Below are positions 1 through 17,839 of a DNA stretch of 18,086 nt, one piece after another. Both the position numbers and the translations under genes were made by a program. This stretch comes from Calditrichia bacterium (lineage in GTDB: Bacteria > Calditrichota > Calditrichia > JAJRVZ01): NCBI GenBank assembly GCA_963777955.1, contig CAVZSQ010000007.1, positions 1 through 18,086 on the forward strand, given 5' to 3'. The first letter of the stretch is position 1. Each line of letters begins with the position of its first letter. The notes below the pieces were generated by a model. That model saw nothing but the letters and a program-made list of their open reading frames with translations. It was not told where the DNA came from and made no database searches.

Positions 1-272
1 TTGTCATAAAAACCGAAAATATTCCACTGCTTCTCCGTCGGAGATACAAAGACCGCCTGAATATCGATCTCGGCGGGATCAAAAGGATTATTATAAACAG
101 CGCCATTTAAATTCAGTATTGCTTCGAATTTGGTGTAGAGTGGGATTGAGGTTGAATTTACAGATTTGATCTGTACCTGCGCAAACACGGGTTGATACAG
201 GGAAACTAATAGTAAAAGCAACAGAAATAAACCTGAATGGTTCCAGGATTTCAACCGATCAGTTATAAACAT
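1..272 (-). CDS. N-terminal part of a secreted DUF5060-domain protein (probable glycoside hydrolase-associated N-terminal domain); truncated by the window edge
   Basis: Not in the ORF track; read by hand from ATG at 272: MFITDRLKSWNHSGLFLLLLLLVSLYQPVFA-QVQIKSVNSTSIPLYTKFEAILNLNGAVYNNPFDPAEIDIQAVFVSPTEKQWNIFGFYD. It has a Sec signal ending VFA and the NPFDP..I...F.SP......GFYD pattern typical of DUF5060. An SD-like AGGGGGA lies upstream. Confidence 0.8.
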   Translation of the reverse strand, partial: MFITDRLKSWNHSGLFLLLLLLVSLYQPVFAQVQIKSVNSTSIPLYTKFEAILNLNGAVYNNPFDPAEIDIQAVFVSPTEKQWNIFGFYD

Positions 273-413: not shown

Positions 414-2953
414 TTATTTAAGCAGTAGCATTTTACCCGTTTTTTCATAGTCGGGAGCAGTCATACGGATAAAATAAACACCGGTACCAACTGCTTTACC
501 GGCATTATCACGGCCGTTCCAGGTTACGGTATATTTTCCACGAACCTTGGATTCATTGACCAGAGTTTTAACTACCTGACCCAGGATATCATAGACTACC
601 AGTTTTACATCGCCGTTCCTGGCAATCTGGTAATTAATCGTGGTGGTCGGGTTGAAGGGATTGGGATAATTCTGACGCAGTTCAGTGGTGAACGGAACGG
701 CATCAAAGTTATCCTCGATCGCTGAGGCCAGCGGTGTGCTGGTGATCATGACCGGAGTCCAGGCTTCGGCGCGCTGCCAGTCGAGGAAATTACCCGGCAC
801 TGCGCCCCAATGGCACTGCAGACTGCGGCTTGAATCTGAAGCGGCAGTCGGATCACTGTCATTCACATCGACTTTCAGCAGCAATTGCATACCGGTAGCC
901 GGTACGAAAACATCGCCGCCAAATTCATTGGCCAGAGAGGTGAAAGGCATCATCAACTCGACCGTATATTTATTTTCGAGTTTATCCACATCATGATCAA
1001 CACCGGTAGCGTCAGTCCATGCTCCGCCGCCATTCTTCTGCAACTGTGAAGCGTAATCCGCAGCATTGATGGAGTAACTTACCCGGAATCCACCTTCGCC
1101 ATTAGTCGTAGCATTGGTACCGAAGAAAGCGACTGCTCAAATCGCTGGCATCGGTCAGCACCGCAAATATGTCGAGGCCATCACCTTCCCATGGCTGACG
1201 GGCACCGTTGGGATCGTCATCGGTCACTTCAATACCGAAATAAAAATTGGCATTATCCATTACACAATAGGCTTCGATATCAAGATCCGTTGATTCTGAC
1301 GTCCATCCGGTGGCATCATTACCGCTTGCTTCTTCCGTAACGAGAGTCGAACGGGTAAAGGTACCGGCCAGTGCCCGGAATTCCTGCAGATCACCATCGA
1401 TGCCAAAATCGGTGAAGTCGGCCAGCAGCGGGATTTCACGCATATAATTCGAGGCACTGCTGATTGGACCGGCATTACTGATGCCATCGCGAACCGGCGT
1501 TTCAATTAATTCACTATTATCGATGGCGGTCAGAGTGACAGTATAGTAATAGCTCTACCTGGCTGCCGTCGACAGTTTCCGGTCTTTCGTGCCAGATCTG
1601 TGTTCCGCGGGGAACCTGCTCGGAAATCAATATTACATCGGCTGCCAGAACATCGGTGATCGGAGCGGATTTGCTCATGTAGATATTATAGGTTTCGCCC
1701 ATATCGGCAGACAGGTCGGTCCATTCGATAATATGTTCATAAATTGGCGTACCGGTAGTGGCATTCAGTACCGTATCCATGGCTACCGCCGTTATAGCCG
1801 GCGATTCCAGTGCAACCGTCACGACCTTGTGGACACCAATAAGTTTAATATTATCGGCATAAAGCGAACCGGTCCAGCCAGTGGCCGAATCAGCAGAATT
1901 GAATTTAACCTCTACCCCGCATTTCACACCGTTACCGACAAGATACAGGGGATCTTCTGCGATGGTTGTCTGAATGTCGAAAGTGAGTGTATTCCAGGCA
2001 CCCAGGGTCAGAGCACTCAGATCGGACCATACAGCATGCCACGCCCAGTTAGTCCTGTCCTGGGCAAAAATCTGTAAACCACCGCCCGTCGGCAAATCAG
2101 CCGGAAGATATACATCCATTTGCAGAGTATGGGCTGTATCTCCTTCGATAATAAAGTTTACACTTTCATTGGCAAAACAAGCATTATGGCCGCCGGCAGC
2201 GCCCAGTGCAGGATTCATTTGCATTTCCAGAACGCCGGTGCTGCCGCCCGTTCCGATCGGATCGGCGATGCGGGTCGGTGAACCAACCCGGGAATCACCC
2301 CAGCCGCTGTTCCAGCCATTGGCACCCAGTGCTTCCACTTCAAAATCGGCCAGTATCTCTTCAGCAGGATTTCTTACACCGCTAAGAGTAATATTATCCG
2401 CAAAAATAGCACCTGTCCATACGGTACCATCAGCAAAATAAAACTCAATTCCTGCCTGCAGACCGTCTGATATATCTCTGCCGGCCGCGACACGTGAAGC
2501 GATATCGAAACTCACCGTGGTCCAATCACCCAGATTCAAATTCGCACCGCCATAGGTATCGGACTCCCAGGCCCAATTTACACGATCCTGGCCGAATACC
2601 TGAAGATTCCCATCAGACGGAAAATCTGACGGCACCCAGACATCAAATGTCATGGTAGTTGCAGTATCGCCATTCACGATTACTGACAAATTTCCATTGG
2701 AAAATGCCGCCTTGTGGTCTCCGCTGGCACCCAGCGAAGCATCGATGGACATCTTCAAGGCACCAGCCGATAAACCACTGGTATCAGCAGCCCAAACCTG
2801 ATTTCCAACCTTGGAACCGCCCCAGCCGCTGCTCCAGGCTCCAACACCCTGAGCCTGCGATTCAAAGTTCTGGACAACCCATTTGTCTGCGGCAAAGGCG
2901 GACCCGATCATAAAAAATACTAAAACCAGTAAAATCGTTATCTGTCTGAACAT
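414..2953 (-). CDS. Secreted multi-module carbohydrate-binding protein (~845 aa): 2 tandem beta-jelly-roll CBM-like modules, an Fn3-like linker, a CBM9/DOMON-like domain and a T9SS type A/FlgD-Ig C-terminal domain; split by 2 frameshifts (~1552, ~1127)
   Basis: Joins ORFs 1517..2953, 1102..1443 and 414..1043. The junctions read QVE/YYYTVTLTAIDNSELIETPVRDG...MREIP and SSR/FFGTNATTNGEGGFRVSYSINAADYASQLQKNGG. Signal peptide ends AFA; SD AAGGAGA. CBM9-like motifs: IDGDLQEF, FYFGIEVTDDD, YTVELMMPF, DVNDSD. C-terminal domain: QNYPNPFNPTTTINY...GVYFIRM...KMLLLK. Confidence 0.8.
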
Positions 2954-3099: not shown

Positions 3100-4119
3100 T
3101 TATTGTTTCTCTACTCTGGCTACCTTTGGATTCATTACCGATTCCCGTTCGATCAGTTTGACCGGAATAATTGTCGTGACCGGTACCTCTATGCCATCCT
3201 GGATGTATTTTAAAAGCATCCGCACGGCAAAAGAACCCATGACATCCTTGTAAACGTGGATAGTGGTCAGCGGCGGGATGGCGTACCTGGCCATGGCAAT
3301 ATCATCGAAACCCACCACGCTGATATCCTGCGGAATACGCAGGCCAAGGTCAAAAACCGCGCGATAAACATGCATGGCATTTATATCATTGGCTACGAAA
3401 ATAGCCGTGACCTTCTCACTCTGTAATAGTTTTCTGGCCAGCGCATACCCGTCTTCTAATCCGCCACAACATATTATTTTTTCATCTATATCAATTCTGT
3501 GATTCTGCAGTGCTTTCAGGTAACCATCATAACGCTGCTTAAAACTGTTGCGGGACAAATCTCCGGAAATGAAAGCGATGCGCCGGTGACCGGCATCGAT
3601 CAGGTACTTGGTAGCCAGGTAGGCACCCTGATCATTCTCGATGATTATCTTCGAATAGCTGACATTGCTATTCTGCGGATCGACGAACACGATGGGGAGT
3701 TTTACTTTTTTTAATCCGGCAAACAGTTTATTACAGAAAGCGCCCAGTAAAATAATCCCATCCACATTGTTTTCATGAACCATTTTAGGCAGGAAAAACC
3801 TGGAATTATTTCCTACGGTGGTCAGTACCAGATTATAATTGTTGATATTCAGTTCGCGCTCGATACTCTCCAGCACGCAGGAATAAAAAGGATTGGTCGA
3901 AAGTGAATTTTCCTCGCGGCTGAAAATAATACCGATGTTTTCTTTTGTCTTGCCTTTGTGAGTTCCATGAGATTTCAGCGGATAGTAATGATGCTGTCTG
4001 GCGATACGGATAATATCCCGGCGGGTCGTCTCACTGATGTCCAGGCGGTTATTCAGCGCTTTGGAGACCGTTGACGGCGCCACTTTGGCTAATTTCGCTA
4101 TTTCTTTTATCCTGATCAT
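3100..4119 (-). CDS. LacI/GalR-family transcriptional regulator
   Basis: N-terminal HTH IKEIAKLAKVAPSTVSKALN. Periplasmic-binding-protein-like effector domain with GHRRIAFI, AIFVAND, IPQDISVVGFDD, PPLTTI and LIERES. Intact, 339 aa. Confidence 0.96.
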   Translation of the reverse strand: MIRIKEIAKLAKVAPSTVSKALNNRLDISETTRRDIIRIARQHHYYPLKSHGTHKGKTKENIGIIFSREENSLSTNPFYSCVLESIERELNINNYNLVLTTVGNNSRFFLPKMVHENNVDGIILLGAFCNKLFAGLKKVKLPIVFVDPQNSNVSYSKIIIENDQGAYLATKYLIDAGHRRIAFISGDLSRNSFKQRYDGYLKALQNHRIDIDEKIICCGGLEDGYALARKLLQSEKVTAIFVANDINAMHVYRAVFDLGLRIPQDISVVGFDDIAMARYAIPPLTTIHVYKDVMGSFAVRMLLKYIQDGIEVPVTTIIPVKLIERESVMNPKVARVEKQ

Positions 4120-4147: not shown

Positions 4148-5605
4148 TTAGTTCAAACTCAATCTATCATAATATTCATGGATGACCTGTATATGTTTCG
4201 TAATGGCCTGACTTTGCCGCAGATCCTGCAGGGTATCGTTTAACAGTGCAATTTTTTTCTGATTCAAAATCATTTGTCCGATCGTTGCCCGCAGGTCCTG
4301 CCCGGGTGGATTAACGGAAGTCGCGACCTGATTTTTTTGAACATATGCATTAATATCCTGATCGGTTACCGTGACGTTACGCAGCAGATCAGACTTGTAA
4401 TCTGATTGTAAATTATAGCTGGCGAAGAGATCCGTTTTGATCTTTACCTGCGGATCTTTCCGATCCAATTGCATTTTTCGAGCTTCTTCGGTCAGAACGA
4501 AGTCACGCATGGCATAATCGAGGGTGGTTTTCAGACTCCGCTGCATAGCCTGGTACGGGATATAATTTAACATCCCGGCAAACCTGGCCATGGTCAGATC
4601 CTGTCCATCAATAGTCGCCAGAACCTCATTCCGGTAATCCCAGATATTATCCTCAACTTTTTTCAGTTCCTGCGCCGTGAGTTGCTGTTCATTCATTTGA
4701 TCGAAGGCTTTGGGTTCGCGGGTCAGGATCAGACGCAACTGCTCACCGACCTGCTGCAACCGTTGCGGATTAATCTGAATCTTGACGTTTTTCATCAGGG
4801 TAGTAATATAATCATAGGCGATTTTCTCGCCTTTTTTGTATTCCACCATCTGCTGTGTTTTGGCATAATGACTCAGATAATCATCCTGGCTGATCAGCGG
4901 ATCGATTTCGAAGTTATCCACACAGAGCAGATGATATCCCCAGGTGCTGTGCACCGGTTTACTGATTTGATGGAGCGGCAATCGGAAAGCAGTCATGGCC
5001 AGGTCGTATTCCAGTTGATCCCAGTACAGCCAGCCCAGATCACCCCCGCTCCCTGCCAGAGTCTGTATCAGCGAATGTCATGACGAGCCTGAAAATTCCA
5101 ATCACCCCCCTTGCTCAATAAATTATAAATACTTTCGGCGGTCGTACTATCCGGATAAAACAGGTGTCTGATCTTTCGTTTTTGCCGGGTAAAAGCATAG
5201 ATCTCTTTTATTTCAGTTGAATCAAGAGAAATTCGCGGCTGGATTACATATTTATAATGAGCATCGCGTAAACATTTATCCCGGTACGCCTCCAACCGCA
5301 ACTGAAAGCGTTCCTGATCGGCCATTCCTTCTTTCCTGGCTTGTTCCGCAAGTAAGTACTGATCGATCAGTTCGTCCAAAAACTTTTCCCTTATTTCGGC
5401 AGAGTCATAAGCCCGGGGTTGTTTAAGCACTTGCAAGTATGCCTCTTTGTATTGATCCAGAGTAATTTTATGACTGCCCACAGTTGCCACCGTGCTTTGA
5501 TCACCGGAACAACTGCTAATGAATTATGATTCCTATCCCGCTAAAAAGGACAGATATCAAATTTGAAAAATTATTTGTTCGAACTAATCTGATACTGCAC
5601 ATCAT
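4148..5605 (-). CDS. Parvulin (PpiC/rotamase)-type peptidyl-prolyl isomerase, PrsA/SurA-like lipoprotein (~485 aa); split by frameshifts (~5523 and ~5060-5085)
   Basis: Its ATG overlaps the upstream stop (ATGA, 5602-5605). Rejoined N-terminus MMCSIRLVRTNNFSNLISVLFSGIGII/FISSC-SGDQSTVATVGSHKIT has a lipobox-like ISSC. SurA-N-like segment FLDELIDQYLLAEQARKEG. Rotamase motifs KIRHLF, GSGGDLGWLYWDQLE..LAMTAFRL..HQISKPVHSTWGYHLL. Confidence 0.8.
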
Positions 5606-8600
5606 TTAATAATTAAAATTCTTCCTACTTTTTCCCCGATCCCCTTTGCTTCAACGTGATAAACATAAACACCATAGGCAATTTCCATATTATCTTTGGA
5701 GAGCAGATCCCATTCTTCGGCGCCATCGGTCATGTTTGAGTTATGCTCAAGTTTCCTGACCAGAGTCCCATCGATGGAATAAATCCGAATGGTGCAGCGC
5801 TGCGGCAGATGAATGAACTGGATCAAGCGGGGTCCCCGGCCGCTGCTGTATGGATTTTCTGATTCCCACTCGGCGGTGACCACATAGGGATTGGGCACTA
5901 CTTTGATTCTGTCCATATTCTGCCCGGCGAGATCTGTGCTGATTTTACCAGAGGTGGTGATAAAACGATAGCGCGTATCGCCATTAAAGGGAAAATCATA
6001 ATAGAGATTCAGTGTATCCCCTGTCCCCAGCATATGGCCATATATCCTGTAGAAACTTGTATCATTCAGACTCTCATTGGTCAGACTCATGGTCACATAA
6101 GTTGAATCATTTGGCATTTTTTCTACAAAAATTAATCTGGTCTTTGGCTGAGAAATAGCCGGGACTGACCACATCTGTATTGATAGTCCGGTCGACAAAA
6201 CCGAATTTAACCGGATCACCGCTTTGACTGTCAAATATTTCAAAATTAACATTTACTGGCCGGTACAGTTGAGGTCTGCCGGTGGTTCTGTTAATTACAT
6301 AGACCGAATCAGACATACCTATGATTTGATCATAAAATCGTATTTGTAACTGGCGTGGATAAAATACACCAGGATAGAATCTGGGATTGTCAAAGTTGGA
6401 ATAAATCAATTGGTAGGCAGTTTCATAGTCCAGACCTGCACTCCAGTGAATTCCATCGAAGATATTCAACTCGGGTGCATTGATGACAGCCGGTGCCGGA
6501 TTATAGACATAAAACTGCAGACCATTTATAATCGTTGTGAAGGTACGGGAATTACCATCATTATCATCATAAATATCGCGGATCATAGCCAGGGTATCCC
6601 CGATCCTTCCGTAATCATAGAACCACACCGTATCGATCACCTGGTCCAGAGTAATATTTTTCAGCAGCAGGCCTGTGGTCAGTGTCGGCAATAATTCATC
6701 ATCATCCAGACCATCTATATTTCCATCCTGGTCATTATCCCGGCCGTCCATCGACTGATCCAGAAATTGAATTTCAAATTCCTGGCCATCAGTTACGGTA
6801 CTGGCATCAAGATAATTCAGCCAGACTTCACCTTCGGTCAAATTGGTTCCCTGCTGGATGGCTTTTTGAGTATAAGTAGGAGCTATATAACCAAGTGTCG
6901 GTGCATTAGGAACTACGGCAACAACATTCAAGCCGGTCCGTATTTCACCGGAAGCATCCAACGTTATGTATTTGTTGGTCTCAGACGGAGAAATATTCTT
7001 CAGGCCATCCCCCTTATCATAAGCAGTCACTGCATAATAGTATCTTTTGCCATTGACCAGCGGCGAATCGACATAAGCATGCACCAGTCCGCTTTCATTG
7101 CCAAGATTGAATTGAACCCCCCGCCCGAAAGTAAGCGGGAAGAAGCCAAAAACACTATCCACTTTATCATAAATAGCCAGTGGTTTAACATACTTAGAAT
7201 AACCATAACCATCTGTAATTTCACCGGCATCGGAAAAGCCGGGATCCTGCGAACGATAGATCTTATACCCTTCGAAATCATTTTGCTTTAAATAACGGTC
7301 AAAACTGTATTCGGCCCGGTCATCCCAGTAGATCGTAACCTTGCGATCGCCGGCCACTGCTTTTAAGGCCGGGAGTTCCGGCGCTATGGCAAAGTTATAG
7401 TTGGCATCATATATATCCTGGACAATATTTTTATTTCTGACAATATCCTGTTCGTCCCAACCATATATCATTGCAACAGAGAAGAATTCTTTTTGTCCCG
7501 TTAAGAGAGGAAAATAACCGCAGGAGAAGATATAATCGGCATCGACATTCTCCAGATGTCCGTCAAAGAATCCCGGCCGGGATACCTGCCAGATATCCTG
7601 ATCATTGGAATAAGTGAGGGTGCCGTATTCATAGAAAATGAAACTGGTCAGACCAATCTGATCCGATTCGTTGACATCAACTTTATCAATATTCGGTTCA
7701 CCCGGTAAATCCCCGCTGCCACCTGTAGGGATACCGTCACCCTCTCCTTCATCCCCGGTCGCCGATTTTCCATCGAGTCCGACATCATCAATCTGTACGT
7801 CCCAGTCCTGATCATTATCAATTCCATCATCACGCCGTTCATCGATCAGCCAGTTGCCGGTACCTTCGCCGCTAATGTAATCCACCGCCAGATAATCTTT
7901 CTTGTTATATACAGGATCACGCACATATAAATAATAATGAACTGAATCGGGTGCAATGGCACCGTCAGACTCATCAATTAATCCGTTCAGGTTATCGTCC
8001 ATACCATTTCGTTCAATTTCAAACAGCGGCGTACCGGCCCGCTTGGGATATTCCATGCCGTTAAATTCGATAACTAGAGTATCCGGCATGGTAGTGACTG
8101 TGCGCTGGTAAGTCTGATAATCGATGAGAACAATGTTTTCACCTACCTGATATGATTTGAAAAAATCTGCAGTCGTAATAAGGTGTCCGCCTCCGGGTGC
8201 ATTGTAACTGTCGCCATCATTATCGATGCCGTCATAGGGATTACCCGGGCTTTCCAGAAAAGCGAATCCTACCCATGGTACCGGTGTGTAACCACTTGTA
8301 CCGACATTATCCCAGTCATAATTCACGGTAAGATCAATTTCACGGTAAAAAGTGGCGCAATCATCATCCCAATCAGTGTGGGCAGTCATCAGCGCACCAA
8401 TGGAGGCGCCTACGTTTAAACCAAAAACCGTCTTGGTCAGATTAAGTTGTCCGATATTCTTAATGTCATAAATCCAGAAGATACAATCTTCCGCGTCTGG
8501 ATTTGCCCATTGCAGGCCGCGTATCTGTTGTTTAAGTCCTAATCCACCCCGGTCCGGCTTGGATGGAATGGGAAGAGGCATATCGTAACCCATGACTTGT

Positions 8601-9201
8601 TTTTTAAATTGATAATCATCCAGTACATAAAAACTTTCCTGATCGGCATTCTTCTGGTCTTTGCCGAAATATCCATTCCAGGCACTGCGCCAGCCGGGAT
8701 CGGAGGCGTCTTCCATCTTGTCAGGCCAGAAAGACGGCCAGGTAAATGGTTCATGACTCATAGCCACGGCATGGTGGGGATCTTCTTCTTTTTGACCATG
8801 TTATAATAACCCGGCAGCGGTTCAAATCCCAGGAAATTACCCAGGGAATCGTGAGCGAACACATTCGCATCCCAGCCCTGGCAGAAAATAACAGGTGTAA
8901 TCGTGACATAGGATGTATCGCTGCTGGTTTGTTCTTCGATTACCCGTAATTCACTACCCACAAAACTGGAAGCATTACCCATCTGGACCATACCGCTGTT
9001 AATCGGCCATTCACCGGCGTAAATCAGACTGTTGTCACCGTTGATGGACCCCATCATACCATGATTATGAAAGGTGACCCGGATCAGGTTTCCGGTATGA
9101 TCATTGCGGGCCCGGTATTTGACATCACCATTGGTATCCTGAGCCTGTACACTCATGATCAATACTGCTATGACTATGACAATTGGCAGACCGACTTTCA
9201 T
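5602..9201 (-). CDS. Large secreted Asp-rich protein (~1200 aa) with DxDxDG Ca-binding-like repeats, an Fn3-like domain and an atypical T9SS-like C-terminal sorting domain; split by 2 frameshifts (~8790, ~6133)
   Basis: Joins ORFs 8758..9201, 6107..8767 and 5602..6252. The junctions read YYNMVK/KEEDPHHAVAMSHEPFTWPSFWPDK and SAKDQI/IFVEKMPNDST. Signal peptide ends VQA; SD AGGAGAG. Asp repeats DGIDNDGD, GMDDNLNG, DGIDNDQD, DGRDNDQDG. Fn3-like LKAVAGDRKVTIYWD...FEGYKIYRS...YYYAVTAYD. C-terminus IKVVPNPY...IRIYSIDGTLV...WDL...GVYVYHV...GRILIIK. Confidence 0.8.
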
Positions 9202-9222
9202 TGTATTATCTCTCCTGATTTT

Positions 9223-10284
9223 TTAAAGAGAAAGAATTAGCGAGAATTTATTCAAATAATCCAGTCGCCCAAAATCGACAGCGGCATAATCGAGACGCAA
9301 CCCGATATTTTGAATCATCAGATTCAGACCAAAGCCGAAGGTCAGACCACCCTCCGCATCTTCCAGGAACAACCGGCGGTAGCCACCGCGCAGAGAGAAC
9401 AGATTATTATATGTATATTCCCCACCGACATTCATATATTCATAATTGTCATTGGGATGGACCACATCACAGGCCAGGATCAGGTCATTTTTCTCCAGTC
9501 CGAAAAAATCACGGGTGAGATTTCCCGAAATTCCCACCCTGAACAGGACCGGCAAACTGAATTCACCGGTTTCCAGTTTTCCGTTAATATTGGAATTGTT
9601 GCCATCGCTGAGGGGATCGATATCGTGTTGAATCAGCAGGTCACTGCCATCCATTTGCATGGTGGTGCCGAAATTGGAGATCGACATACCGATGCGGACA
9701 TTCTTAAAAACCGTGCGATAATTGACCCCTATGTCAGCAGCAAAACCGTTGGCCGTGCAATGCCAGATTTTTTCTCCGATGAATTTAAGGGTTACGCCCA
9801 GATCGAACCGGTCGGTCAGGGTTCGCCCGTAACTGAATCCGGTGCTGAAAGAATAGGCTGTGGCTTTTTCCCCTGTACCTTCCGGCTCCATGACGGTAGT
9901 GCGATCGATATCCGGCATACCCAGGAAAGCAAAATGGAATCCGAATGTTCCCAAAGCACCAAATGATATGGCTGCGCCGGCATAATCATAATAGATGTCG
10001 GCGATGAAATCATAATGACTGACCAAAAACTGGCTGTTGGAGATCTGGGCCAGTCCGGCTGGATTCCAATAAAGAGCGGTTACATCCGAAACCTGGGTGG
10101 AATAGGCTTCGCCCATGGCCAGAGCCCGTCCGCCCACACCGATCTTTAAAAAAGAAGCAGCAGACGTACCCACCAGCGAGACAGACTGGGCGGAGAGGTT
10201 AATTACCGTTAAGCAGATTAAAATGCTGATAAAAAGGATTCCGGTTGATCGGATTCTCTCTTTGCTGGTATCTGAAAAATGCAT
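9223..10284 (-). CDS. PorV/PorQ-family (UPF0164, FadL-like beta-barrel) outer-membrane protein
   Basis: Signature GTSAASFLKIGVGGRALAMGEAY...DVTALYWNPAGLA, LPVLFRVG, GGEYTY...SLRGGY and alternating beta-strands to the C-terminus. The ATG at 10284 has SD GCAGGAG and is preferred over the GTG at 10311. Confidence 0.9.
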   Translation of the reverse strand: MHFSDTSKERIRSTGILFISILICLTVINLSAQSVSLVGTSAASFLKIGVGGRALAMGEAYSTQVSDVTALYWNPAGLAQISNSQFLVSHYDFIADIYYDYAGAAISFGALGTFGFHFAFLGMPDIDRTTVMEPEGTGEKATAYSFSTGFSYGRTLTDRFDLGVTLKFIGEKIWHCTANGFAADIGVNYRTVFKNVRIGMSISNFGTTMQMDGSDLLIQHDIDPLSDGNNSNINGKLETGEFSLPVLFRVGISGNLTRDFFGLEKNDLILACDVVHPNDNYEYMNVGGEYTYNNLFSLRGGYRRLFLEDAEGGLTFGFGLNLMIQNIGLRLDYAAVDFGRLDYLNKFSLILSL

Positions 10285-10313
10285 AATTGACTCCTGCATG
10301 TGCAGCCTCACTT

Positions 10314-13259
10314 TTATCTGGTGATTCTAAGACCCAATTGAACAAAACGCGGAGAACTATAATAATCCGGCCTGGCGAAATATTCATTTAAATCGGAGAT
10401 CTCGATGATCCGGCCTGCCTGAGTGTAACCGGCCAGGGTATAATCAGGTTGACCGCTGTCGGAATAAACATTGCGGGCATTACGGATATCGAACAGATTG
10501 GTAACGTTCAGATATAATTCGGTAATAAAAACTTTCCAATCAAATCGTTTCCCGATTCTCAAATCAACATTATAAGTTAATGGTTTGTATTTACTATTCT
10601 CGCGAAGCCCGACAAAGGTTCCCGAACCGGCAACTTCACCGCGGGCAAAACTGGGGGTATATGGTAAGCCGCTGTTAACCGTACCTATCACCGCGGCTAC
10701 CCAGCCTGTTGAATTATAAGTTATTACTGTATTCAGGGCATGCCGTTGGTCCCAGGCCAGATTGATCAGTTCGAGACGAGGTTCACGTTTGGCAATAGCA
10801 TCATTATAGGCATCCTGTGGATTGGAAGAGGTACCTTTCAGCTGTCATGAAGGTATAATCAACACTCAGGTTCAGATTCTGATGACGGTAAGTTCCGCTG
10901 AGGGTTATCCCTTTGGCTGCAGCATGATCTTTATTTTCATATTGATAATAGGTCACACCGCGATAGGTATCGATCGGTTTGCCGGTTCCGACCCAGTCTC
11001 TGATATCGCGGTAGAAACCAGTCAGGTGCAGATACAGGTTATCCTGCAGTTGCTGCTGCAGCCCGAGTTCATACATGATAGTACGTTCGGCATCCAGATC
11101 GGCATTGCCAACCAGGTTGGTGGCGCCGGCGCCTTCGATCCAGAAATTCGGATTATCATAAAGGAAACTGAATTGCGGATTCTGAAAGAAATGCCCATAT
11201 GAAAAATGGATGACCCCCCGGTCGGTAATTGGGAAAGACAGGCCAAAACGGGGACTGACCTGGTATTTGGCCTCCGGTTTTTTATACCAGAACGTATTAC
11301 GTTCTGCGGTGGTATACTCAACTAATTCACTATCCGGAATTCCTTCGTAATAATTAGTATAAATATGATCAAGTTTAAAAGGCCTGTACAGTTGAGGATC
11401 CTTTGCATCCGCCAGCACCTTCCCATCCGAGTAGAAGTAATCGAAACGCACGCCCAGATTGATGATAAAATCCTGAAATTCGACTTTATCCTGCAGATAG
11501 AAAGCATATTCCTGTGGTTTAGCGCTGTACAAAACATGATAAGGACTGTTTTCACTGGGGGAGAAGAAACTCTGGGTATTATCGTCCCATTGCATATTGT
11601 ACCAGTCATTGGTCAGGTCATGCAAAGTGGCCGATACACCTGATTTAATCTGGTGACGTTTGGTAACCTGGCTGGTTAAATCCAGTTTAAGAGACCAATA
11701 GGCAACATCCGTTTTGCTGCGATCAGTCGGATTACCGGCATAGATAAAATCATAGGGATTGGAAGTAAGACTATAGTTATTATCCGGATCCGGTCCGAAT
11801 ACATACAATTCAAAGTCGCTGCTCTCCGTAGGCATCAGACGATAATCATCAGGATCGGCATACATGTAATTCTTATGATTTTTCTGATAATAACTGCATT
11901 TAAAGTCATAAAAAGTACTTTGCGCCAGAACCTGTTTCAGGGAGAGAATATGAGTCATGGTATGAGTATAGTAATGCTTACCTGCATCGGGTACGTATTT
12001 ATAATTCCAGCCATTACTGCCAAAACTATGGTCATAGTTATAATAGAATCCATAGTTCAAATTTATCTTATCGGTCAATTCAATAAATAATTTTGATTGT
12101 GAAGAGAATCCTTTATACCAATTCAAAGCCACCAGTTCATTATCTGCAGTCTTGAAGTTGCGGGTAGAATCCGCATACGGTGTTCGATAACCCCAGGGCA
12201 TAAAATACCTTCGCCCATACTGATAACCCGGACTATTATTATAACGGGCCGATATAAAATAAGTAATCTTATTATTCAAAAATGACAGGGGCCGGAGATG
12301 TTCAATTGAACATCCGTGGATTTTAAAGGATTATAGGAATTAAGATAAGCTTCCTTTTCAAGGTACTTCTTTTGACCAAAGATTGTTTCATAATCGGATC
12401 CATACTTGCTGAAATCGAAATATCCCGGTTGTCCGCCGGTCATGGCCCGGACAATAAAATTGGCCCACTCAGCATTGCCCATGACCGAATAGACCTTATC
12501 ATCCAGACTGAAATAATCACCCATATAGGCAATAACATTAATCTTGAAATCTTCACTGCCGCGCTTGGTCACGATATTGATCACTCCGGACAGAGCCTGT
12601 CCGTATTCGGCATTAAATGTTCCGGTGATCGTTTTTAATTCTTCGATGGCCTGATCGTCGATATTGATACCGGGCCGGCGATTCAGGGGATCAATAATCT
12701 GCACACCATCCACCAGGTATGAAATTTCGGTCGTGCGGCCGCCGCGAATATGAATGTCACCCCCGGCATCCCTGATCACACCAGCCTGCAAACTCACTAT
12801 ATCGTTGATCCCGCGAACGGGCAGCATCTCGATTTTATCGGTGCTGAAACTTGTCTCAGAAGCGGTCAGGTCTTTCTGAATGGCATCGCGATTGGCTGAA
12901 ACCACCACCACGTCGTTCGATTCCAGGATCTGCTGTTTTAAGGTGGCATCCACCCGCGTGGTCAGATCCGCGCTGACCCTTACATCTTTGACTGCAATGG
13001 TCTGATACCCTATAAACATGAAGCGGACCTGGTAATTGCCCGGCGGGATATTGATAATATAATATTCTCCGGTTATATCGGTCATGCCACCTAGTTGCGT
13101 ACCTTCAATCAGTACATTGGTTCCGACTAAAGGTTCACCCTTTTCATCTACAACAATACCGGCAATCTTCCCGGTGGTTCCGGCCCGGGACAAACCATTG
13201 TAGAACAAGATAATAAGTAAAATTATCAGTACATCTTTCAAGATGGAATGAATTCGCAT
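10314..13259 (-). CDS. TonB-dependent outer-membrane receptor with N-terminal carboxypeptidase-regulatory-like domain (~980 aa, non-SusC type); split by 2 frameshifts (~12289, ~10837)
   Basis: Joins ORFs 12276..13259, 10804..12279 and 10314..10691. The junctions read NISGP/LSFLNNKITYF and FMTAE/GTSSNPQDAYND...WDQRHALN. Motifs: GTTGKIAGIVVDEKGEPLVGTNV, plug HIRGGR.TEISYLVDG and GTFNAEYGQALSGVINIVTKRG, barrel NLGVRFDYF, SPRFGLSFPI, GNADLDAERT, NLFD. SD AAGGGAGG. Confidence 0.92.
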
Positions 13260-13351: not shown

Positions 13352-13415
13352 TTCGGTCTTGTTGAAGGTATTGTCAAAGGTATTTTCGAAGGTATTTTCG
13401 AATGTTTCGAAAACA
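13352..13415. repeat. Tandem 12-bp repeats (GAAGGTATTTTC consensus) in the receptor leader; candidate repressor operator
   Basis: GAAGGTATTGTC (13364), AAAGGTATTTTC (13376) and GAAGGTATTTTC (13388), with degenerate flanks TTCGGTCTTGTT and GAATGTTTCGAAAACA. TTCGAA palindromes occur at 13385, 13397 and 13406. Confidence 0.7.
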
Positions 13416-13473
13416 ACTGCGATAATTTTCGTAAAATCCCCGCTCGATATATATTTGAAAAATATTATGCCCT

Positions 13474-13538: not shown

Positions 13539-13686
13539 TACTATATGTAAGATTTTAATAATTAAAGATTTGACTACTTCAGTAAGTTTCCCCCTTTTTT
13601 GAAAAAATATTCTTGAGCTTTATCGAAAAGTGGTTCGCTTAGTTCATAGAATGAACAATTTTCCCTGATTGCAAACTTATCGAAAA

Positions 13687-16600
13687 TCAGGATTTTTCAG
13701 ATGAATGAATCTGCCGGTATTCCCTCGGTTGAATACCAAAATGTTCCTGGAACAGTTTGGCAAAATGCGAGGGATAGTTAAATCCTACTTCATAACAGAT
13801 CTCGGTGATATTTAAGTTTGATTTTTCCAGCAACTGCGCTGCCCGTTTCAGGCGCATGGTCTGAATAAATTCATTGGGTGTCAGGGTGGTAATTACCTTG
13901 ATCTTTCTGAACAACTGGGCCCGGCTTAATCCTATTTTCTGACTGAGAATCTGAACATCAAATTTCTTATCGGCCAGGTTGTCTTCGACAATTTCCATGG
14001 CCTTTTTGATAAACTTTTCATCCGGCGAAGTTATCGGCACCTGATTGGGCATCAGCCAGATCTGCCGGCTGAAACGCTGGCGCATTATTTTCCGTGATTC
14101 CAGCAAATTATGGATCCGGATTTTCAGGATTTCCAGGTTGAACGGTTTGATCAGATAATCATCAGCCCGGGTACCCAGCCCTTCAATCTGCTGTTCTTCA
14201 GTCACACGGGCCGTCAGCAGAAAAACCGGGATATGATTGGTCAGTTCAGTCTCCTTGATTTTACGGCACAGTTCAACCCCATTCAGGCCATGCATCATCA
14301 CATCACTGATGATCAAATCGGGCAGGTATCTTTGCGCCAGTTGCCAGCCTTCATCCCCATGGCGTGCCGTCAAAATTCTGTAATTTGCCATCAACTCTTC
14401 TTTTAAAAAGTCCCGTAGTTCCTGTTCATCTTCTACAATTAACAGCAGAGCAGCATCCTCCTGGCCGGCGGGCAGGTACTCTTCCTGCTGCTCCGGCAAA
14501 CTTAACATACTGGTCTCCATTGCGGAGGGAGTGCCATGCTCACCACCATAGATGGCAATGTCCCCCACCGGTAGAGTTAAACTGAAACAGGCGCCGTGAC
14601 CCAACCGGCTTTCGACCATCAGCCGGCCATTATGTAATTCAATTAATTCCTTGCTCAGCGCTAATCCTATCCCTGAACCTGAGGGATGATTGATGCCGGG
14701 ATGATTGAACTGATAAAAACGGTTAAAGATGGAGTCGAGATGTTCTGCCGGAATACCAGGACCGCTGTCCTGCACTTTTAATTGAATTTCATCATCGCTT
14801 ATTTTCTGCACCAACACGGTTATTTCGCCCCCGACAGGTGTGAATTTGAAGGCATTGGAGAGCAGATTAAATACGACCATATCAATTTTATCCGGATCGA
14901 CCAGAGCCCATTGTTTTGAAAAATCGGATTCAAATTTCAAGGCAATATTTTTATCCACGGCCAGGGGGGTAAATGTATCGACAATACTTTTGACGAATCC
15001 GCTGAAATCTATTTCCTTCTTATTCAATTTCATCTGTCCGAGTTCAATACGGTTGAAATCGATCACCTGATCGACCAGACGCATCATTCGCTCGGCACTT
15101 TTTTTCATCAGACCATACCGCGCCTGTACTTTGCTCCACTCGACGCCCGGTCCTTTCTTCAATAAATCGTTCAAAGGAGTCAGAATCAGCGTCAGGGGCA
15201 TGCGGAACTCGTGGGAAATATTCGTAAAAAAACGGGACTTTAACGCTTCGAGTTCGCTGAGTTTTTCTTTATCCAGTTTCTGACGTTTCAAATCGATACG
15301 CAAATGCATCAATTTTACATAATAGTTGTGCCCAAAATACAGGATCAACAACACAAGTATGATATAGACCAGGTAGGCATACCATGCTTGCCACCAGGGG
15401 GGCAATACTTTTATAAACAGGGTGGCATTATGGTGGCTCCAGTTGCCTTCTTCATCTGTGCAGGTCACATATAAATCGTACTTACCCGGTTGCAGATTAA
15501 AAAAAGTTGCCGACCTGCTCGAACCCACTTCCATCCAGTTTTCGTGATATCCTTTCAGTAAATAACGGTAACGGATTTTTTCAGGCAGAAAGAATTCCAA
15601 CGCTGAAAAATCGACGGACAATACCCTGGCTTGTTCGGCAGTAAGGGTAATCTGGCCATGGACAGGAATAGCACTGGAAATTGTTGTCTGGGTCAGATCC
15701 GGTTGCTGCCTGGCGCTGTAATAATGTATCCGGTTAATAAAAATTGGCGGAGCGGCATGCGACCTTTTTACCGCGGCCGGCAGGAATATATCAAAACCAT
15801 CCGTGCTGCCGAAAATTAATTCGCCGCTGGAAAGCCGGTTATAAGCACCCTGGATGAATTTATTCCCGCGCAGGCCATTATGCACCGTAAATACTTTTAA
15901 GGAGTAGTCGCGTGAATCGAAACGAACCAGGCCTTTATTGGTACTGATCCACAGGAAACCTTCACTGTCTTCCAGGATCCCGCAGATAATTTCACCCGGT
16001 AAACCTTCTTTAATCCCGAAGGAAGTAAAAGAATGATTGGAGCTGTCGAAGATATTTAATCCGTCAGCAGTACCGATCCACAGCTTCCCCCGCGTATCTT
16101 CCAGAAAGCAATAGATCCAGTTATTGCTCAGACCATTGGCATTGACACCATTGACGCCATAGTTGACCAGTACTTTACGTTCCCGGTCCAGGACACTGAT
16201 ACCGTTATAGGTGCCGATCCACAGCAGGCCATTTTTATCTTCAAAGACCACTGTACAGAAATTCGTGGCAATCTCGTCCGGGAAGGTCCGGTTGCTTGAA
16301 GTATAGTGCATGTACTGGTTTAGATTTACCGGCAATAAAGCGGAACAATCCGTCACCATTAGTGGCAATCCAGATATCGCCCTGGCGGTCCTCATAAATA
16401 CAGCGCACATCGTCATGTTTGATTTTGATCAAGCCATCCCGCGAGTGCAGGATATGTTTAAATGATTTTGCTTCGCGGTCAAAGATATCAAGTCCTAATA
16501 AAAATCCGCCGATCCACAGCCGTTGGTGACTATCCTCCAGCAGACTCAGTACCGAATTCGAATGCAGGGTACTCTTTTCATCGAAACGGGACAGGTAACT

Positions 16601-17800
16601 CTGAACTTTTCCTGTTTTCCGGTTAAACATATGCAATCCGCCGCCATCAAGGCCCAGCCAGATATTATGATCTCTGTCTTCTTCGATGCAACTCACCGGT
16701 TGATCGGTAAAAGGATTAGGCTGATCGATAATATCCTGGACAATGATAAAAGGATTGCTGCTGACTTTAATCAGGTTCAGTCCTTTGAGTGTTCCAACCC
16801 AGATGTTATCGCTATTTTCTACATAAATTGTCTGGACCGAATTGTTATCCAGGCTGTACTTATCCTGAGCATCATGGCCAATCCGTATAAAATGATGCGA
16901 AGCCTGCCCGGTTTTTAGCAGGTTTAATCCACCGCCATTAGTCCCCACCCATAATTGTTCATTTTGATCAATGGCCAGGCTATAACAATCATTGGCGGAC
17001 AGTGAATAAGGGTTCTGTGGATTATTGCTGAAGACTGTTACCTGGTATGTTTGCGGATCAACCCGGTACAATCCACTGGAAGAGGCTACCCAGATATTAT
17101 CCTGCCGGTCCTGCACCAGGTCAAGAATATGGTTTGAAGGTAATCCGTAGGGCTTGCTGCTCGAAAATCGAAGAATAGATCCGCTGGCTTGTTCATAACA
17201 CAGCAATCCCGCCGAAGTAAATCCAAGCCAGATATTATTTTTGCGGTCCAGGTAGATTTTATTCAATACATCATCATGATCCAGATAATTATCCAACGGT
17301 GGAATAGAGAGGGGTCTGACCAGACTATCGTTGAAATCTACCTGATATATTCTCGATTTTGATAAAACATAGATCCGGCCATCGAAGCCTTCTATTATCT
17401 GATTGCTGGTTATTTGATATCCGGCCTGATCGGGGAAGCGGATAAAGCGGTCTCGCTGGACATCATACAGGTGCAGTCCCAATTGCGTCCCGATCCATAA
17501 GCGGCCCTCCCGATCGACTAAAATATCGCGGACCACATTATCGGAGAGTGATAAAGAGTCTTCCGGGTTACTCAGATAATGGACAAACTCAACGCCGTCA
17601 AACCGGTCCAGACCTGATTCCGAACCAATCCAGATGTAACCGCGTGAGTCTTTAGCGATACAATCGATTTTGCTGCTGGATAATCCCTGTTCAGTTGAGA
17701 AATGTTTGAATATATATTGTGTATCTCTGGCGGGAGCAGAAAAAGAAAAATTAATTAAAAAAATGCTAAATAATATATACAGAATGAACAGCTTAGTCAT
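13687..17800 (-). CDS. Hybrid two-component system sensor kinase/response regulator (beta-propeller Reg_prop repeats, Y_Y_Y, TM, HisKA, HATPase, REC, AraC HTH), ~1370 aa; split by one frameshift (~16326)
   Basis: Joins ORFs 16241..17809 and 13687..16416; the junction reads FIAG/NLNQYMHY. Repeated D..G.IWIGT..GL blades, YRYLLKGY..NW, TM after PPWWQAW, SRFFTNISHEFR, NLLSNAFKFT, DSGPGI, GSGIGLAL, LIISDVMM, DDYLIKPF and AraC-type YEVGFNYPSHFAKLF. Likely start is ATG at 17800 (the track uses TTG at 17809). Confidence 0.95.
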
Positions 17801-17839
17801 AATTCTCAAGTCCTATACCAGGACAATCGTCCCCCGCGA

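Follow-up and report, generated by a model that had tools for sequence, protein, structure and literature searches.

The window, by which is meant the whole 18,086-nt stretch of DNA that was analyzed, was found to carry a run of four genes on the minus strand, encoding in order a TonB-dependent receptor, a barrel of the PorV/PorQ family, a large protein referred to here as the cargo, and a PPIase lipoprotein. The initial annotation had described these genes as tightly coupled, and the junctions were confirmed from the sequence: 29 nt separate the receptor stop codon from the ATG of the barrel gene, 21 nt separate the barrel stop codon from the ATG of the cargo gene, and the cargo stop and PPIase start share an ATGA overlap. 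The hybrid two-component (HTCS) gene reported upstream of the run is also present (17809-13687, split). The features are as follows:

3..272, minus strand: DUF5060-type secreted protein, start only (the contig end cuts the gene), recognized by homology to L121:3-1280
414..2953, minus strand: secreted protein in three pieces, with a CBM9-like domain (weak PF06452) and an ordinary type A tail (type IX secretion system, T9SS; PF18962, TIGR04183)
3100..4119, minus strand: LacI-family regulator common to orthologous loci (Pfam)
4148..5605, minus strand: SurA/PrsA-like PPIase lipoprotein in at least three pieces, accessory (SurA_N_3, weak Rotamase matches)
5602..9201, minus strand: cargo, ~1200 aa, in three frames (AlphaFold2 model of homologue P0005, fold searches)
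5602..5925 (start approximate), minus strand, inside the cargo gene: T9SS-type C-terminal tail, apparently of a cassette-specific subtype (fold match, trio-tail profile)
9223..10284, minus strand: small outer-membrane barrel of the PorV/PorQ family (NF033709), intact, 353 aa, a paralogue specific to the cassette
10314..13259, minus strand: TonB-dependent receptor (~980 aa; N-terminal extension, plug and barrel), in three frames (PF13715, PF07715, PF00593)
13355..13426, strand unassigned: candidate regulator sites upstream of the receptor, consisting of three tandem units of 12 nt plus an inverted partner
13687..17809, minus strand: hybrid two-component sensor-regulator, split in two frames, a neighbor outside the conserved module (Pfam)

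The frame of the receptor is broken near 12285 and 10839 and that of the cargo near 8794 and 6134. Short-read contigs of near-identical strains have one-base indels at 6134, 8794, 10839, and 12283-12288, which coincide with these breaks, and in a genome of the same genus (G093) the locus has open frames, the receptor being cut by the contig start. The breaks are therefore most likely assembly errors, and a pseudogene reading was ruled out on the same evidence.

Receptor, cargo and barrel genes (the trio) occur in 13 copies in this genome (G000). Conservation of the trio, as predicted, held across 80 cargo loci from GTDB, with complete trios identified by script in 58 (55 in the order receptor-cargo-barrel and 3 as receptor-barrel-cargo) and three more by eye (L061, L073, L080). 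The receptor-barrel-cargo order of the window is a clade-specific variant, the usual order being receptor-cargo-barrel. Contig ends cut 15 of the 80 loci, and four are exceptions: two are without an upstream receptor (L024, L097), one is without a barrel (L076) and one has no barrel downstream (L041). In 73 of the 76 loci with judgeable upstream sequence, the cargo or barrel is immediately preceded by a receptor of one family; L041 (only 859 nt upstream) was scored as a miss in this count. One receptor of this family in the genome (L012:12465) stands without cargo or barrel. The cargo family is present in 84/86 genomes of the same phylum, and the trio was found in many little-studied bacterial groups. 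Matching stretches in GTDB are estimated at about 8300, and going by record titles, isolates of Ignavibacteria, Calditrichota and Rhodothermia are among the carriers; L121, L123, and L124 are examples of intact trios, which total about 2500 residues.

Matches above cut-off to plug (PF07715) and barrel (PF00593), shared with the orthologue in L120, identify the first gene as a TonB-dependent receptor; it has an N-terminal PF13715 extension and is 51–59% identical to intact orthologues. The polysaccharide utilization loci of Bacteroidota are organized around SusC/SusD (RagA/RagB) pairs. The plug motif of the window receptor had been read as other than that of SusC, and this proved correct: GTFNAEYGQALSGVINIVTK is present, the trio-type plug pattern has 8 matches in the genome, all in trio receptors, and the pattern KDA..A.YG, which we take to be the SusC motif, has 0. 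Membership of SusC was rejected, as the N-terminal piece of the window receptor scores 88 bits on TIGR04056 (SusC/RagA) against a cut-off of 368; the best score in the genome, intact paralogues included, is 110 bits, and a control genome passed the cut-off. Directly downstream of the receptor lie the barrel and cargo genes and no SusD-family lipoprotein gene, in agreement with the initial annotation. The SusD family had no match among the 15 window ORFs scanned, PF07980 and PF14322 had 0 matches genome-wide (genome 92% complete, control genome positive), and none was listed among 150 neighbors of the wider loci. The absence of SusD thus stands for this genome but not as a general rule; SusD matches coexist with the trio in 10/50 and 31/86 trio-bearing genomes, and strict mutual exclusion was rejected.

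The barrel scores 194 bits on NF033709 (PorV/PorQ family, cut-off 90) and matches solved PorV 6h3i_F with E 2.3e-9 (phmmer). On the equivalog models (NF033710, NF033711) it reaches 70 bits for PorV (cut-off 250) and 83 bits for PorQ (cut-off 220), and it does not qualify as housekeeping PorV or PorQ. By the same scores, better candidates for these roles are other genes of the genome, namely L018:7444, with 173 bits on the PorV model (below cut-off), and L017:7077, with 235 bits on the PorQ model (over cut-off), so the window barrel is evidently not the sole housekeeping copy, which would have undermined the original proposal. A tree of 17 PorV-family proteins separated the 10 trio barrels from the rest, but the branch concerned is weakly supported (50/95, recovered in 49% of bootstrap trees), and a single origin cannot be concluded from it.

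The cargo could be assigned to no Pfam or NCBIfam family. Intact relatives are ~1200 aa long (e.g., P0002, 1207 aa, 82% identical), and the layout consists of a signal peptide (a hydrophobic N-terminus read from the sequence), a predicted beta-supersandwich with an Asp-rich insert, FN3, a variable beta region and a PorZ/PorU-like tail. In the AlphaFold2 model of homologue P0005, from which the fold results are taken, the N-terminal domain aligns with the supersandwich, itself non-catalytic, of GH15/GH94/GH65 enzymes (best Z 20.0, rmsd 3.2, 260 aligned); it also resembles GH174 (Z 14.6), mutarotase-like (Z 13.1) and PL26 entries and the YidC periplasmic domain (Z 13.3). The fold is catalytic in some of these families (GH174, mutarotase-like). 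Fold matches span the supersandwich only, the model has short isolated helices only, without an (alpha/alpha)6 catalytic barrel, and conserved Asp and Trp residues lie within the supersandwich. Two stand-alone relatives of this domain (L013:8245-10341, L011:58-1941) have ordinary type A tails and no adjacent receptor or barrel gene. The middle of the cargo gave less: its sequence had 0 matches to solved structures, the variable region folded alone with pLDDT 86.7, and its best fold match, to flagellar junction proteins, was not clear (Z 7.6, rmsd 2.6, 87 aligned). Foldseek with the whole model returned only multi-Ig/FN3 matches of low TM-score, and the 30 nearest ESM Atlas clusters have no common Pfam family.

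Residues 1089-1198 of the homologue model align with the CTD of PorZ (5m11; Z 11.7, rmsd 2.1, 87 aligned) and of PorU (6za2; Z 10.0, rmsd 2.6, 86 aligned), and weak NCBIfam matches to PorU and PorZ tails were also obtained. The tail is accordingly predicted from the model to have the PorZ/PorU CTD fold, and with its signal peptide the cargo has the makeup of a T9SS cargo. A profile built from 51 trio tails of other genomes placed the 13 trio cargos among its top 14 matches in this genome at 35–154 bits (152 bits for the window tail), all other tails scoring ≤33.5 bits, and by these scores the tail appears to be a cassette-specific subtype of its own. Type A CTD profiles (TIGR04183/PF18962) found no match in window 5602-6252 or in P0002; the second tail of the window, at 414-1043, does match them. 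The cargo tail has no CHU_C or type B match and the window barrel no match to TIGR03519 (PorP/SprF), for which the best score in the genome is 30.5 bits against a cut-off of 90.55 (no control genome positive). Type B/SprF membership was rejected on these grounds, and with it the SprB-SprF analogy first drawn for this pair. PorQ holds PorZ, whose CTD remains uncleaved and belongs to neither of types A and B, according to PMC10947112, and PorQ-PorZ is the proper precedent for the cargo and its barrel.

The PPIase is ~480 aa in intact orthologues, five of which have Rotamase matches (L120, L121, L124, L021, L023), and a lipobox-like Cys was seen by eye in those of L120 and L121. It directly follows the trio in the window and in L021, L023, L120, L121, L123, and L124; among the 80 wider loci it is adjacent in just 6 (by script). 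It is an accessory, conserved solely in this orthologue clade, and its original inclusion in the module was dropped. The two-component sensor, noted at first as lying upstream of the run, does not immediately precede the receptor in those orthologous loci for which upstream sequence is available (L021-L023, L121, L123, L124), and foldase and sensor were both rejected as core parts. The LacI gene is shared instead: that of the window is 97, 52, and 50% identical to those of L120, L123, and L124, respectively, against 25–36% to four other LacI genes. A TTCGAA-type motif upstream of the receptor recurs in the intergenic DNA of 3/6 orthologous loci only, and no claim is made for it as an operator.

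Neighbors of the trio in the window include the CBM9-like protein, LacI and the two-component sensor, and no GH26 gene lies within the window. Orthologous loci carry GH26 (L021, L023, L121), GH130 and a GlcNAc-2-epimerase-family gene (both L121), a sodium:solute symporter (L124) and LacI. Homologues of the CBM9-like protein are encoded just before the receptor in L021, L022, and L023 (tblastn), and the DUF5060-type protein is 41% identical over 76 aa to L121:3-1280, which has PF16586 and belongs to a mannan locus. Taken together with its orthologues' neighbors, the window qualifies as a polysaccharide utilization locus in the broad sense. Since the orthologous loci carry GH26, GH130 and the epimerase, beta-mannan oligosaccharides are a fairly likely substrate. 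Across trio copies the contexts include starch, dextran, xylan, beta-glucan, mannan, peptidase and amidase; a CAZyme or CBM match lies within two same-strand genes in 23/65 wider loci, a lower bound given the strict E-value limits, and 3/13 copies in this genome have no sugar genes close by. The description as a glycan-uptake module therefore holds insofar as the trio is often near carbohydrate genes, but not in restricting it to glycans.

Core T9SS genes, whose presence had been made a check on the proposal, were recovered in part. SprA and PorU are above cut-off in this genome, and SprA in 48/50 genomes of the cargo loci. GldK gave sub-cut-off matches only and GldM and GldN none, and GldM had no match in 31 other genomes, in searches in which no control genome passed the cut-off. 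Bacteroidia power export with a motor that is not evident here.

The expected co-phylogeny of the three genes was found, independently of SprA as a species marker. Over 39 genomes, the correlations are 0.77 for receptor-cargo, 0.71 for receptor-barrel and 0.55 for cargo-barrel, against r 0.17–0.36 for the trio genes with SprA, and they are almost unchanged once SprA is removed. Nearest neighbors agree between receptor and cargo in 20/39 genomes and with SprA in 8–9/39. A post hoc comparison of domains in 58 trios gave the N-terminal supersandwich a partial r of 0.68 with the receptor and 0.09 with the barrel, and partial r with the barrel was highest for the tail (0.30), although the receptor has more alignment columns than the barrel and is favored in such correlations. 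Co-divergence cannot separate contact from linkage, because linked genes inherited as a block co-diverge without touching. A complex prediction was made with L008, a smaller paralogous trio used because the window's own pair is above the 1000-residue limit; receptor barrel (229-823) and cargo supersandwich (40-394), each with an alignment and with plug, FN3, tail and small barrel left out, scored 0.00 twice against a mark of 0.32 (controls not folded), which counts neither for nor against docking. A fusion search among proteins of 2114–5000 aa gave 0/3034 scored candidates at E 1e-10, which is weak evidence.

The reading preferred here, to which a probability of roughly 55% is given, is that receptor, PorV-family barrel and cargo are a conserved three-gene unit for export, tethering and docking in substrate import. 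The cargo would be exported through the type IX translocon and stay bound by its tail to its own barrel, which is highly probable, and it quite probably works jointly with the receptor in uptake. Its beta-supersandwich would likely dock on the receptor and capture substrate, probably beta-mannan oligosaccharides at the window locus, for TonB-driven import; the chances that it docks directly, in the manner of a lid, are about even. By analogy, the cargo would likely do for the channel what SusD does in gut Bacteroides, namely food capture, and the PPIase lipoprotein would likely be an optional periplasmic folding helper. More tentatively, the trio may represent lidded TonB-dependent transporters of a second class that evolved independently, whose lid is a T9SS-exported beta-supersandwich protein on a private PorV-family barrel that recognizes a new tail subtype. 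In Calditrichota-like, KSB1, Marinimicrobia and Ignavibacteria lineages it would be the principal means of taking glycans, peptides and cell-wall fragments across the outer membrane, and the type IX system serving it would lack a recognizable GldLM motor. Counted against the proposal were the four exception loci, L012:12465, SusD coexistence, the 23/65 CAZyme/CBM loci, the lack of GH26 in the window, the GldK, GldM, and GldN results, the catalytic supersandwich families, and the stand-alone relatives, which indicate that the domain can be encoded without a neighboring receptor.

It is possible, if unlikely, that the exported and barrel-tethered cargo does not close over the channel but works next to the receptor, as a binding protein or an enzyme of the cell surface (SusE/F/G-like). 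The supersandwich is common to carbohydrate-active proteins including the GH174, PL26 and mutarotase-like entries, it has the conserved Asp and Trp, and its stand-alone relatives bear ordinary type A tails. However, one cargo family sits beside receptors in all the contexts listed above, which fits a structural role better than a single catalytic activity; the model is without the catalytic helical barrel, the supersandwich tracks receptor divergence, and the ordinary surface enzymes encoded alongside carry type A tails. It is improbable that cargo, barrel and PPIase are instead a biogenesis or stabilizing set for the receptor family (folding, insertion, large-loop protection). The PPIase position in the orthologous loci, the YidC resemblance and a weak BamG match of the barrel (E 0.0023) would suit such a role, but the PPIase is rarely adjacent in the wider loci, a general helper would need no 13 receptor-specific paralogues with a variable middle region, and the predicted tail fold points to outer-surface export. 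FN3 and Asp-rich repeats are common in adhesins. Least probable of all is that the cargo serves as an adhesin or surface-coat protein, has a shuttle of its own and stays beside the receptor only through co-regulation and block inheritance. Cognate cargo-shuttle pairs are known for adhesins (PMC12618676; PMC9143113), but the adjacent receptor is always of one family and agrees with the cargo in nearest neighbors more often than SprA does.

No description of the trio was found in literature titles and abstract beginnings (mostly non-subscription papers), nor is it mentioned in passages from the genome paper on Caldithrix abyssi (PMC5317091) or from the Lipocone preprint (10.1101/2025.01.14.632903); the word TonB is absent from the main text of PMC12618676. 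The trio would serve as a marker gene set by which loci for nutrient uptake can be recognized in several phyla that are widespread in sediments, wetlands and the sea, with neighboring genes suggesting the substrate of each copy. Prediction of polysaccharide utilization loci rests on SusC/SusD pairs, so lineages that use the trio are under-read. If the three-gene unit works as proposed, type IX secretion would be tied directly to TonB-driven import, and cognate tail-barrel pairing, so far a matter of one or two pairs, would occur a dozen times over in a single cell, which would make the trios well suited to studying what encodes tail-barrel specificity. Clear SprA without detectable GldM/GldN raises the question of the power source for export in these phyla.

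Several known systems invite comparison. As with type B cargo and PorP/SprF (SprB-SprF, PG1035-PorP), for which barrel-mediated surface anchoring has been proposed, a cargo and its private barrel lie side by side; type B cargos are known or predicted adhesins, unlike the role proposed here (PMC12618676, PMC9143113), and barrel and tail of the trio come from different families, with no PorP/SprF gene above cut-off in this genome. PorQ-PorZ and PorV-PorU belong to the secretion machinery itself, in the T9SS attachment complex of Porphyromonas gingivalis (PMC10947112), whereas there are 13 paralogous pairs per genome here, each tied to a TonB-dependent receptor. The cargo shares the N-terminal beta-supersandwich (galactose-mutarotase-like fold) of GH15/GH65/GH94 at Z 16–20 over ~230–280 residues, but with <13% identity, no catalytic helical barrel, and a 200-residue Asp-rich insert followed by FN3 and a secretion tail. 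As in SusC/SusD, the TonB-dependent receptor of the trio bears a PF13715 extension at its N-terminus and is followed by a large partner gene dedicated to it, each genome has many paralogues, and CAZymes, LacI or two-component regulators and inner-membrane symporters are close by. Unlike SusC/SusD, the receptor is far under the SusC cut-off and differs in plug motif, there is a third gene, for a barrel, and the partner, neither a lipoprotein nor TPR/helical, is predicted to be all-beta and to end in a T9SS-type tail.

The Calditrichia genome under study (G000) is 4.24 Mb in size and 92% complete, and the window is its full contig C7. All of the predicted genes lie on one strand:

17809-13687, minus strand: hybrid two-component gene, split
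13259-10314, minus strand: TonB-dependent receptor, in several frames
10284-9223, minus strand: PorV/PorQ-family (barrel) gene
9201-5602, minus strand: cargo, a large gene that matches no family, in several frames
5605-4148, minus strand: PPIase (foldase) gene, in several frames
4119-3100, minus strand: LacI gene
2953-414, minus strand: CBM9-like protein ending in a type A tail
last gene of the window, minus strand: DUF5060-type gene, start only

The junctions of 29 nt, 21 nt and ATGA claimed in the initial annotation were read with the same values from the window sequence. Split genes were found throughout the genome (SprA, for example, spans several frames). The frame breaks in the window receptor, cargo and PPIase are read here as probable assembly errors, because one-base indels were found at four of the break points in short-read contigs of near-identical strains and because receptor, barrel, cargo, PPIase and LacI are all in open frames in the same-genus genome G093. 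Candidate sites for a regulator lie upstream of the receptor, at 13355-13426 and 13620-13686: two copies of TTATCGAAAA and three tandem units of 12 nt each, together with an inverted partner. Of six orthologous loci, only three carry a motif like this in intergenic DNA.

The expected conservation of the trio (receptor, cargo and barrel) was borne out. Thirteen copies were found in G000, twelve in the order receptor-cargo-barrel, with the window copy alone being receptor-barrel-cargo. The cargo was matched in 84 of the 86 genomes of the same phylum, and the named relatives of the window cargo are from Marinimicrobia, KSB1, Ignavibacteria and Calditrichota. A GTDB genome scan using an alignment of 112 cargo relatives took in 5 of 64 collection parts with two Asp-rich motifs as selector, giving a bias to insert-bearing subfamilies; of the 147 loci that it confirmed, the best 80 were output. 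The full trio was identified by script in 58 of these best 80 (plus three by eye), with contig ends cutting 15 and four being exceptions (L024 and L097 without an upstream receptor, L076 without a barrel and L041 without a downstream barrel). According to record titles, the groups among the GTDB loci include Ignavibacteria, Marinimicrobia, KSB1, Calditrichota, Rhodothermia, Kryptonium and Stahlbacteria. A trio-family receptor with no cargo or barrel gene is present in G000 (L012:12465-15749, contig C23) behind two tandem trios, whose partners it might borrow, and has a GH13-family gene after it.

The receptor-barrel-cargo order with a PPIase behind is kept in six of the closest orthologues (L021, L023, L120, L121, L123 and L124), while L022 and L122 stop short of the PPIase position. 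In the wider family (best 80 of 147), the PPIase was adjacent by script in only 6 of 80 loci (L098 being a possible seventh) and at any place in 16, and therefore the foldase, initially counted as part of the module, is an accessory that is constant only among the closest orthologues.

The three genes also co-diverge. Among 58 complete trios (the 51 of 58 GTDB trios passing length filters and seven from the same phylum), pairwise distances correlated at 0.79 for receptor-cargo, 0.70 for receptor-barrel and 0.63 for cargo-barrel, and the gene trees had 29-35 of 55 splits in common. When SprA served as an approximate species marker (39 of the 40 genomes sampled), its correlations with the trio genes reached only 0.17-0.36, and the three genes kept partial correlations of 0.53-0.77 with one another once SprA was removed. 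This co-divergence, shared little with SprA, indicates that the trio duplicated and moved as a unit. It is no proof of contact, since block inheritance by itself produces co-divergence. In post hoc comparisons of non-independent loci, the N-terminal supersandwich diverged along with the receptor (partial r of 0.68, against 0.09 with the barrel); of the cargo domains, the tail shared most with the barrel (0.30, against 0.36 with the receptor). These domain-wise values hint at which cargo part may face which partner, short of proving contact.

No Pfam or NCBIfam model was found for the cargo family. P0005, an intact homologue that shares 66% identity with the middle piece of the window cargo, was modelled with AlphaFold2 (mean pLDDT 85.8). 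The model comprises a beta-supersandwich (~residues 20-320 and 515-600, with an Asp-rich insert between), followed by an FN3 domain at 604-765, a beta region of variable sequence at 766-1092 and the tail at 1089-1198. In fold searches the supersandwich resembled the domain at the N-terminus of enzymes from GH15, GH94 and GH65 (Z up to 20.0), whose catalytic helical barrel is absent from the model; the FN3 domain resembled that of contactin (Z 9.3) and the tail the CTDs of PorZ (Z 11.7) and PorU (Z 10.0). A profile of 51 trio tails from other genomes placed all 13 G000 trio cargos within its top 14 matches, the one outsider being a stand-alone 541-aa secreted protein beside a GTPase-like gene (G000:C13:79492-81117; tail 50 bits), with no barrel gene nearby. 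Two supersandwich relatives in G000 (L013:8245-10341 and L011:58-1941), without adjacent receptor or barrel, have an ordinary type A tail. Because the profile singles out trio cargos and these relatives are type A, the trio tail fits a putative subtype read by private barrels.

The core T9SS genes SprA and PorU both scored above cut-off in G000, as predicted, and SprA was found in 48 of 50 genomes picked from the 80 GTDB loci. GldM and GldN gave no match and GldK only sub-cut-off matches in G000, with control genomes likewise passing no cut-off; GldM also gave no match in 31 other genomes, where controls were silent too. If real, the absence of GldM and GldN would mean a type IX system that has clear SprA and PorU but lacks the known motor. 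The PorV/PorQ family model had 38 matches in G000, 18 of them above cut-off. The window barrel is not the housekeeping copy, because among 15 barrels scanned both the top PorV-model score (173 bits; cut-off 250) and the single PorQ-model pass belong to genes outside the trios. Three further G000 loci were observed. A few genes downstream of sprA, at L014:4563-7865 (C13), a protein whose tail is PorU-like is encoded together with two members of the PorV family, possibly an attachment-complex equivalent. L015:4737-9322 (C22), with a second PorU-like gene (PorU2-type match) and its own PorV2-like barrel, is another cognate cargo-barrel pair, and L019:7000-8931 (C24), which lies behind a giant protein with a tail, is a PorV-family barrel extended by 300 residues at its C-terminus. 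The proposed absence of SusD held for G000 (zero matches to two Pfam models) but not as a rule, as PF07980 was found in 10 of 50 genomes of cargo loci (1-5 matches each) and 31 of 86 own-phylum genomes (1-3 each). The trio is thus common where SusD is scarce, yet not exclusive.

A role in glycan uptake agrees with the sugar genes seen, from neighbour annotations, near 10 of the 13 G000 copies (GH53/GH2, GH94/CBM9, GH16/GH30, GH130, PL9-like, melibiase, GH31/GH13 and xylose-isomerase-like with UxuA), but not with the other three. L008 has M20, S51 and M14 peptidases nearby (S51 and M14 in its orthologue L127), L007:117-6073 (C22) has CotH, VTC and DUF4956 genes ahead, a possible link to phosphate or polyphosphate, and L010 has no clear context. 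Among 65 wider-set loci scanned, a CAZyme or CBM lay within two same-strand genes in 23 and an N-acetylmuramoyl-L-alanine amidase in five. In one subfamily (L070, L072, L078, L092 and L095) this amidase follows the trio, often with FG-GAP proteins before the trio, and cell-wall-fragment uptake is possible. Neighbours in the window's clade include GH26 (L021, L023 and L121), GH130 and a GlcNAc-2-epimerase-family gene (L121), a symporter gene (L124) and orthologous LacI (L120, L123 and L124), a set typical of beta-mannan use; the incomplete DUF5060-type gene has a homologue in the L121 mannan locus.

It is proposed that the cargo would cross the inner membrane by Sec and then pass through SprA, that its own PorV-family barrel would collect it and hold it by the tail, and that the supersandwich would sit on the outside of its cognate receptor, passing on oligosaccharides for TonB-driven import. 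The entire chain is given a probability of roughly 55%; export and tethering are well-founded inferences, and lid-like docking is less certain than any other step. A cargo that is tethered next to the receptor and acts there as a binding protein or an enzyme is considered unlikely. A biogenesis set is improbable, and a co-regulated adhesin slightly more so.

No description of the trio was found in a literature search at title and abstract level, and it is judged real, widespread and undescribed in the literature searched. The initial annotation drew an analogy with type B cargo, which PMC12618676 and PMC9143113 describe as working with PorP/SprF shuttles. PorQ-PorZ is preferred as the precedent for the cargo-barrel pairing; the PorZ CTD is described in PMC10947112 as uncleaved and of a kind other than type A or type B. 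The trio is similar to SusC/SusD in working context, yet falls outside that system by both tests of membership, and it puts a pairing like that of PorQ and PorZ to a new use.
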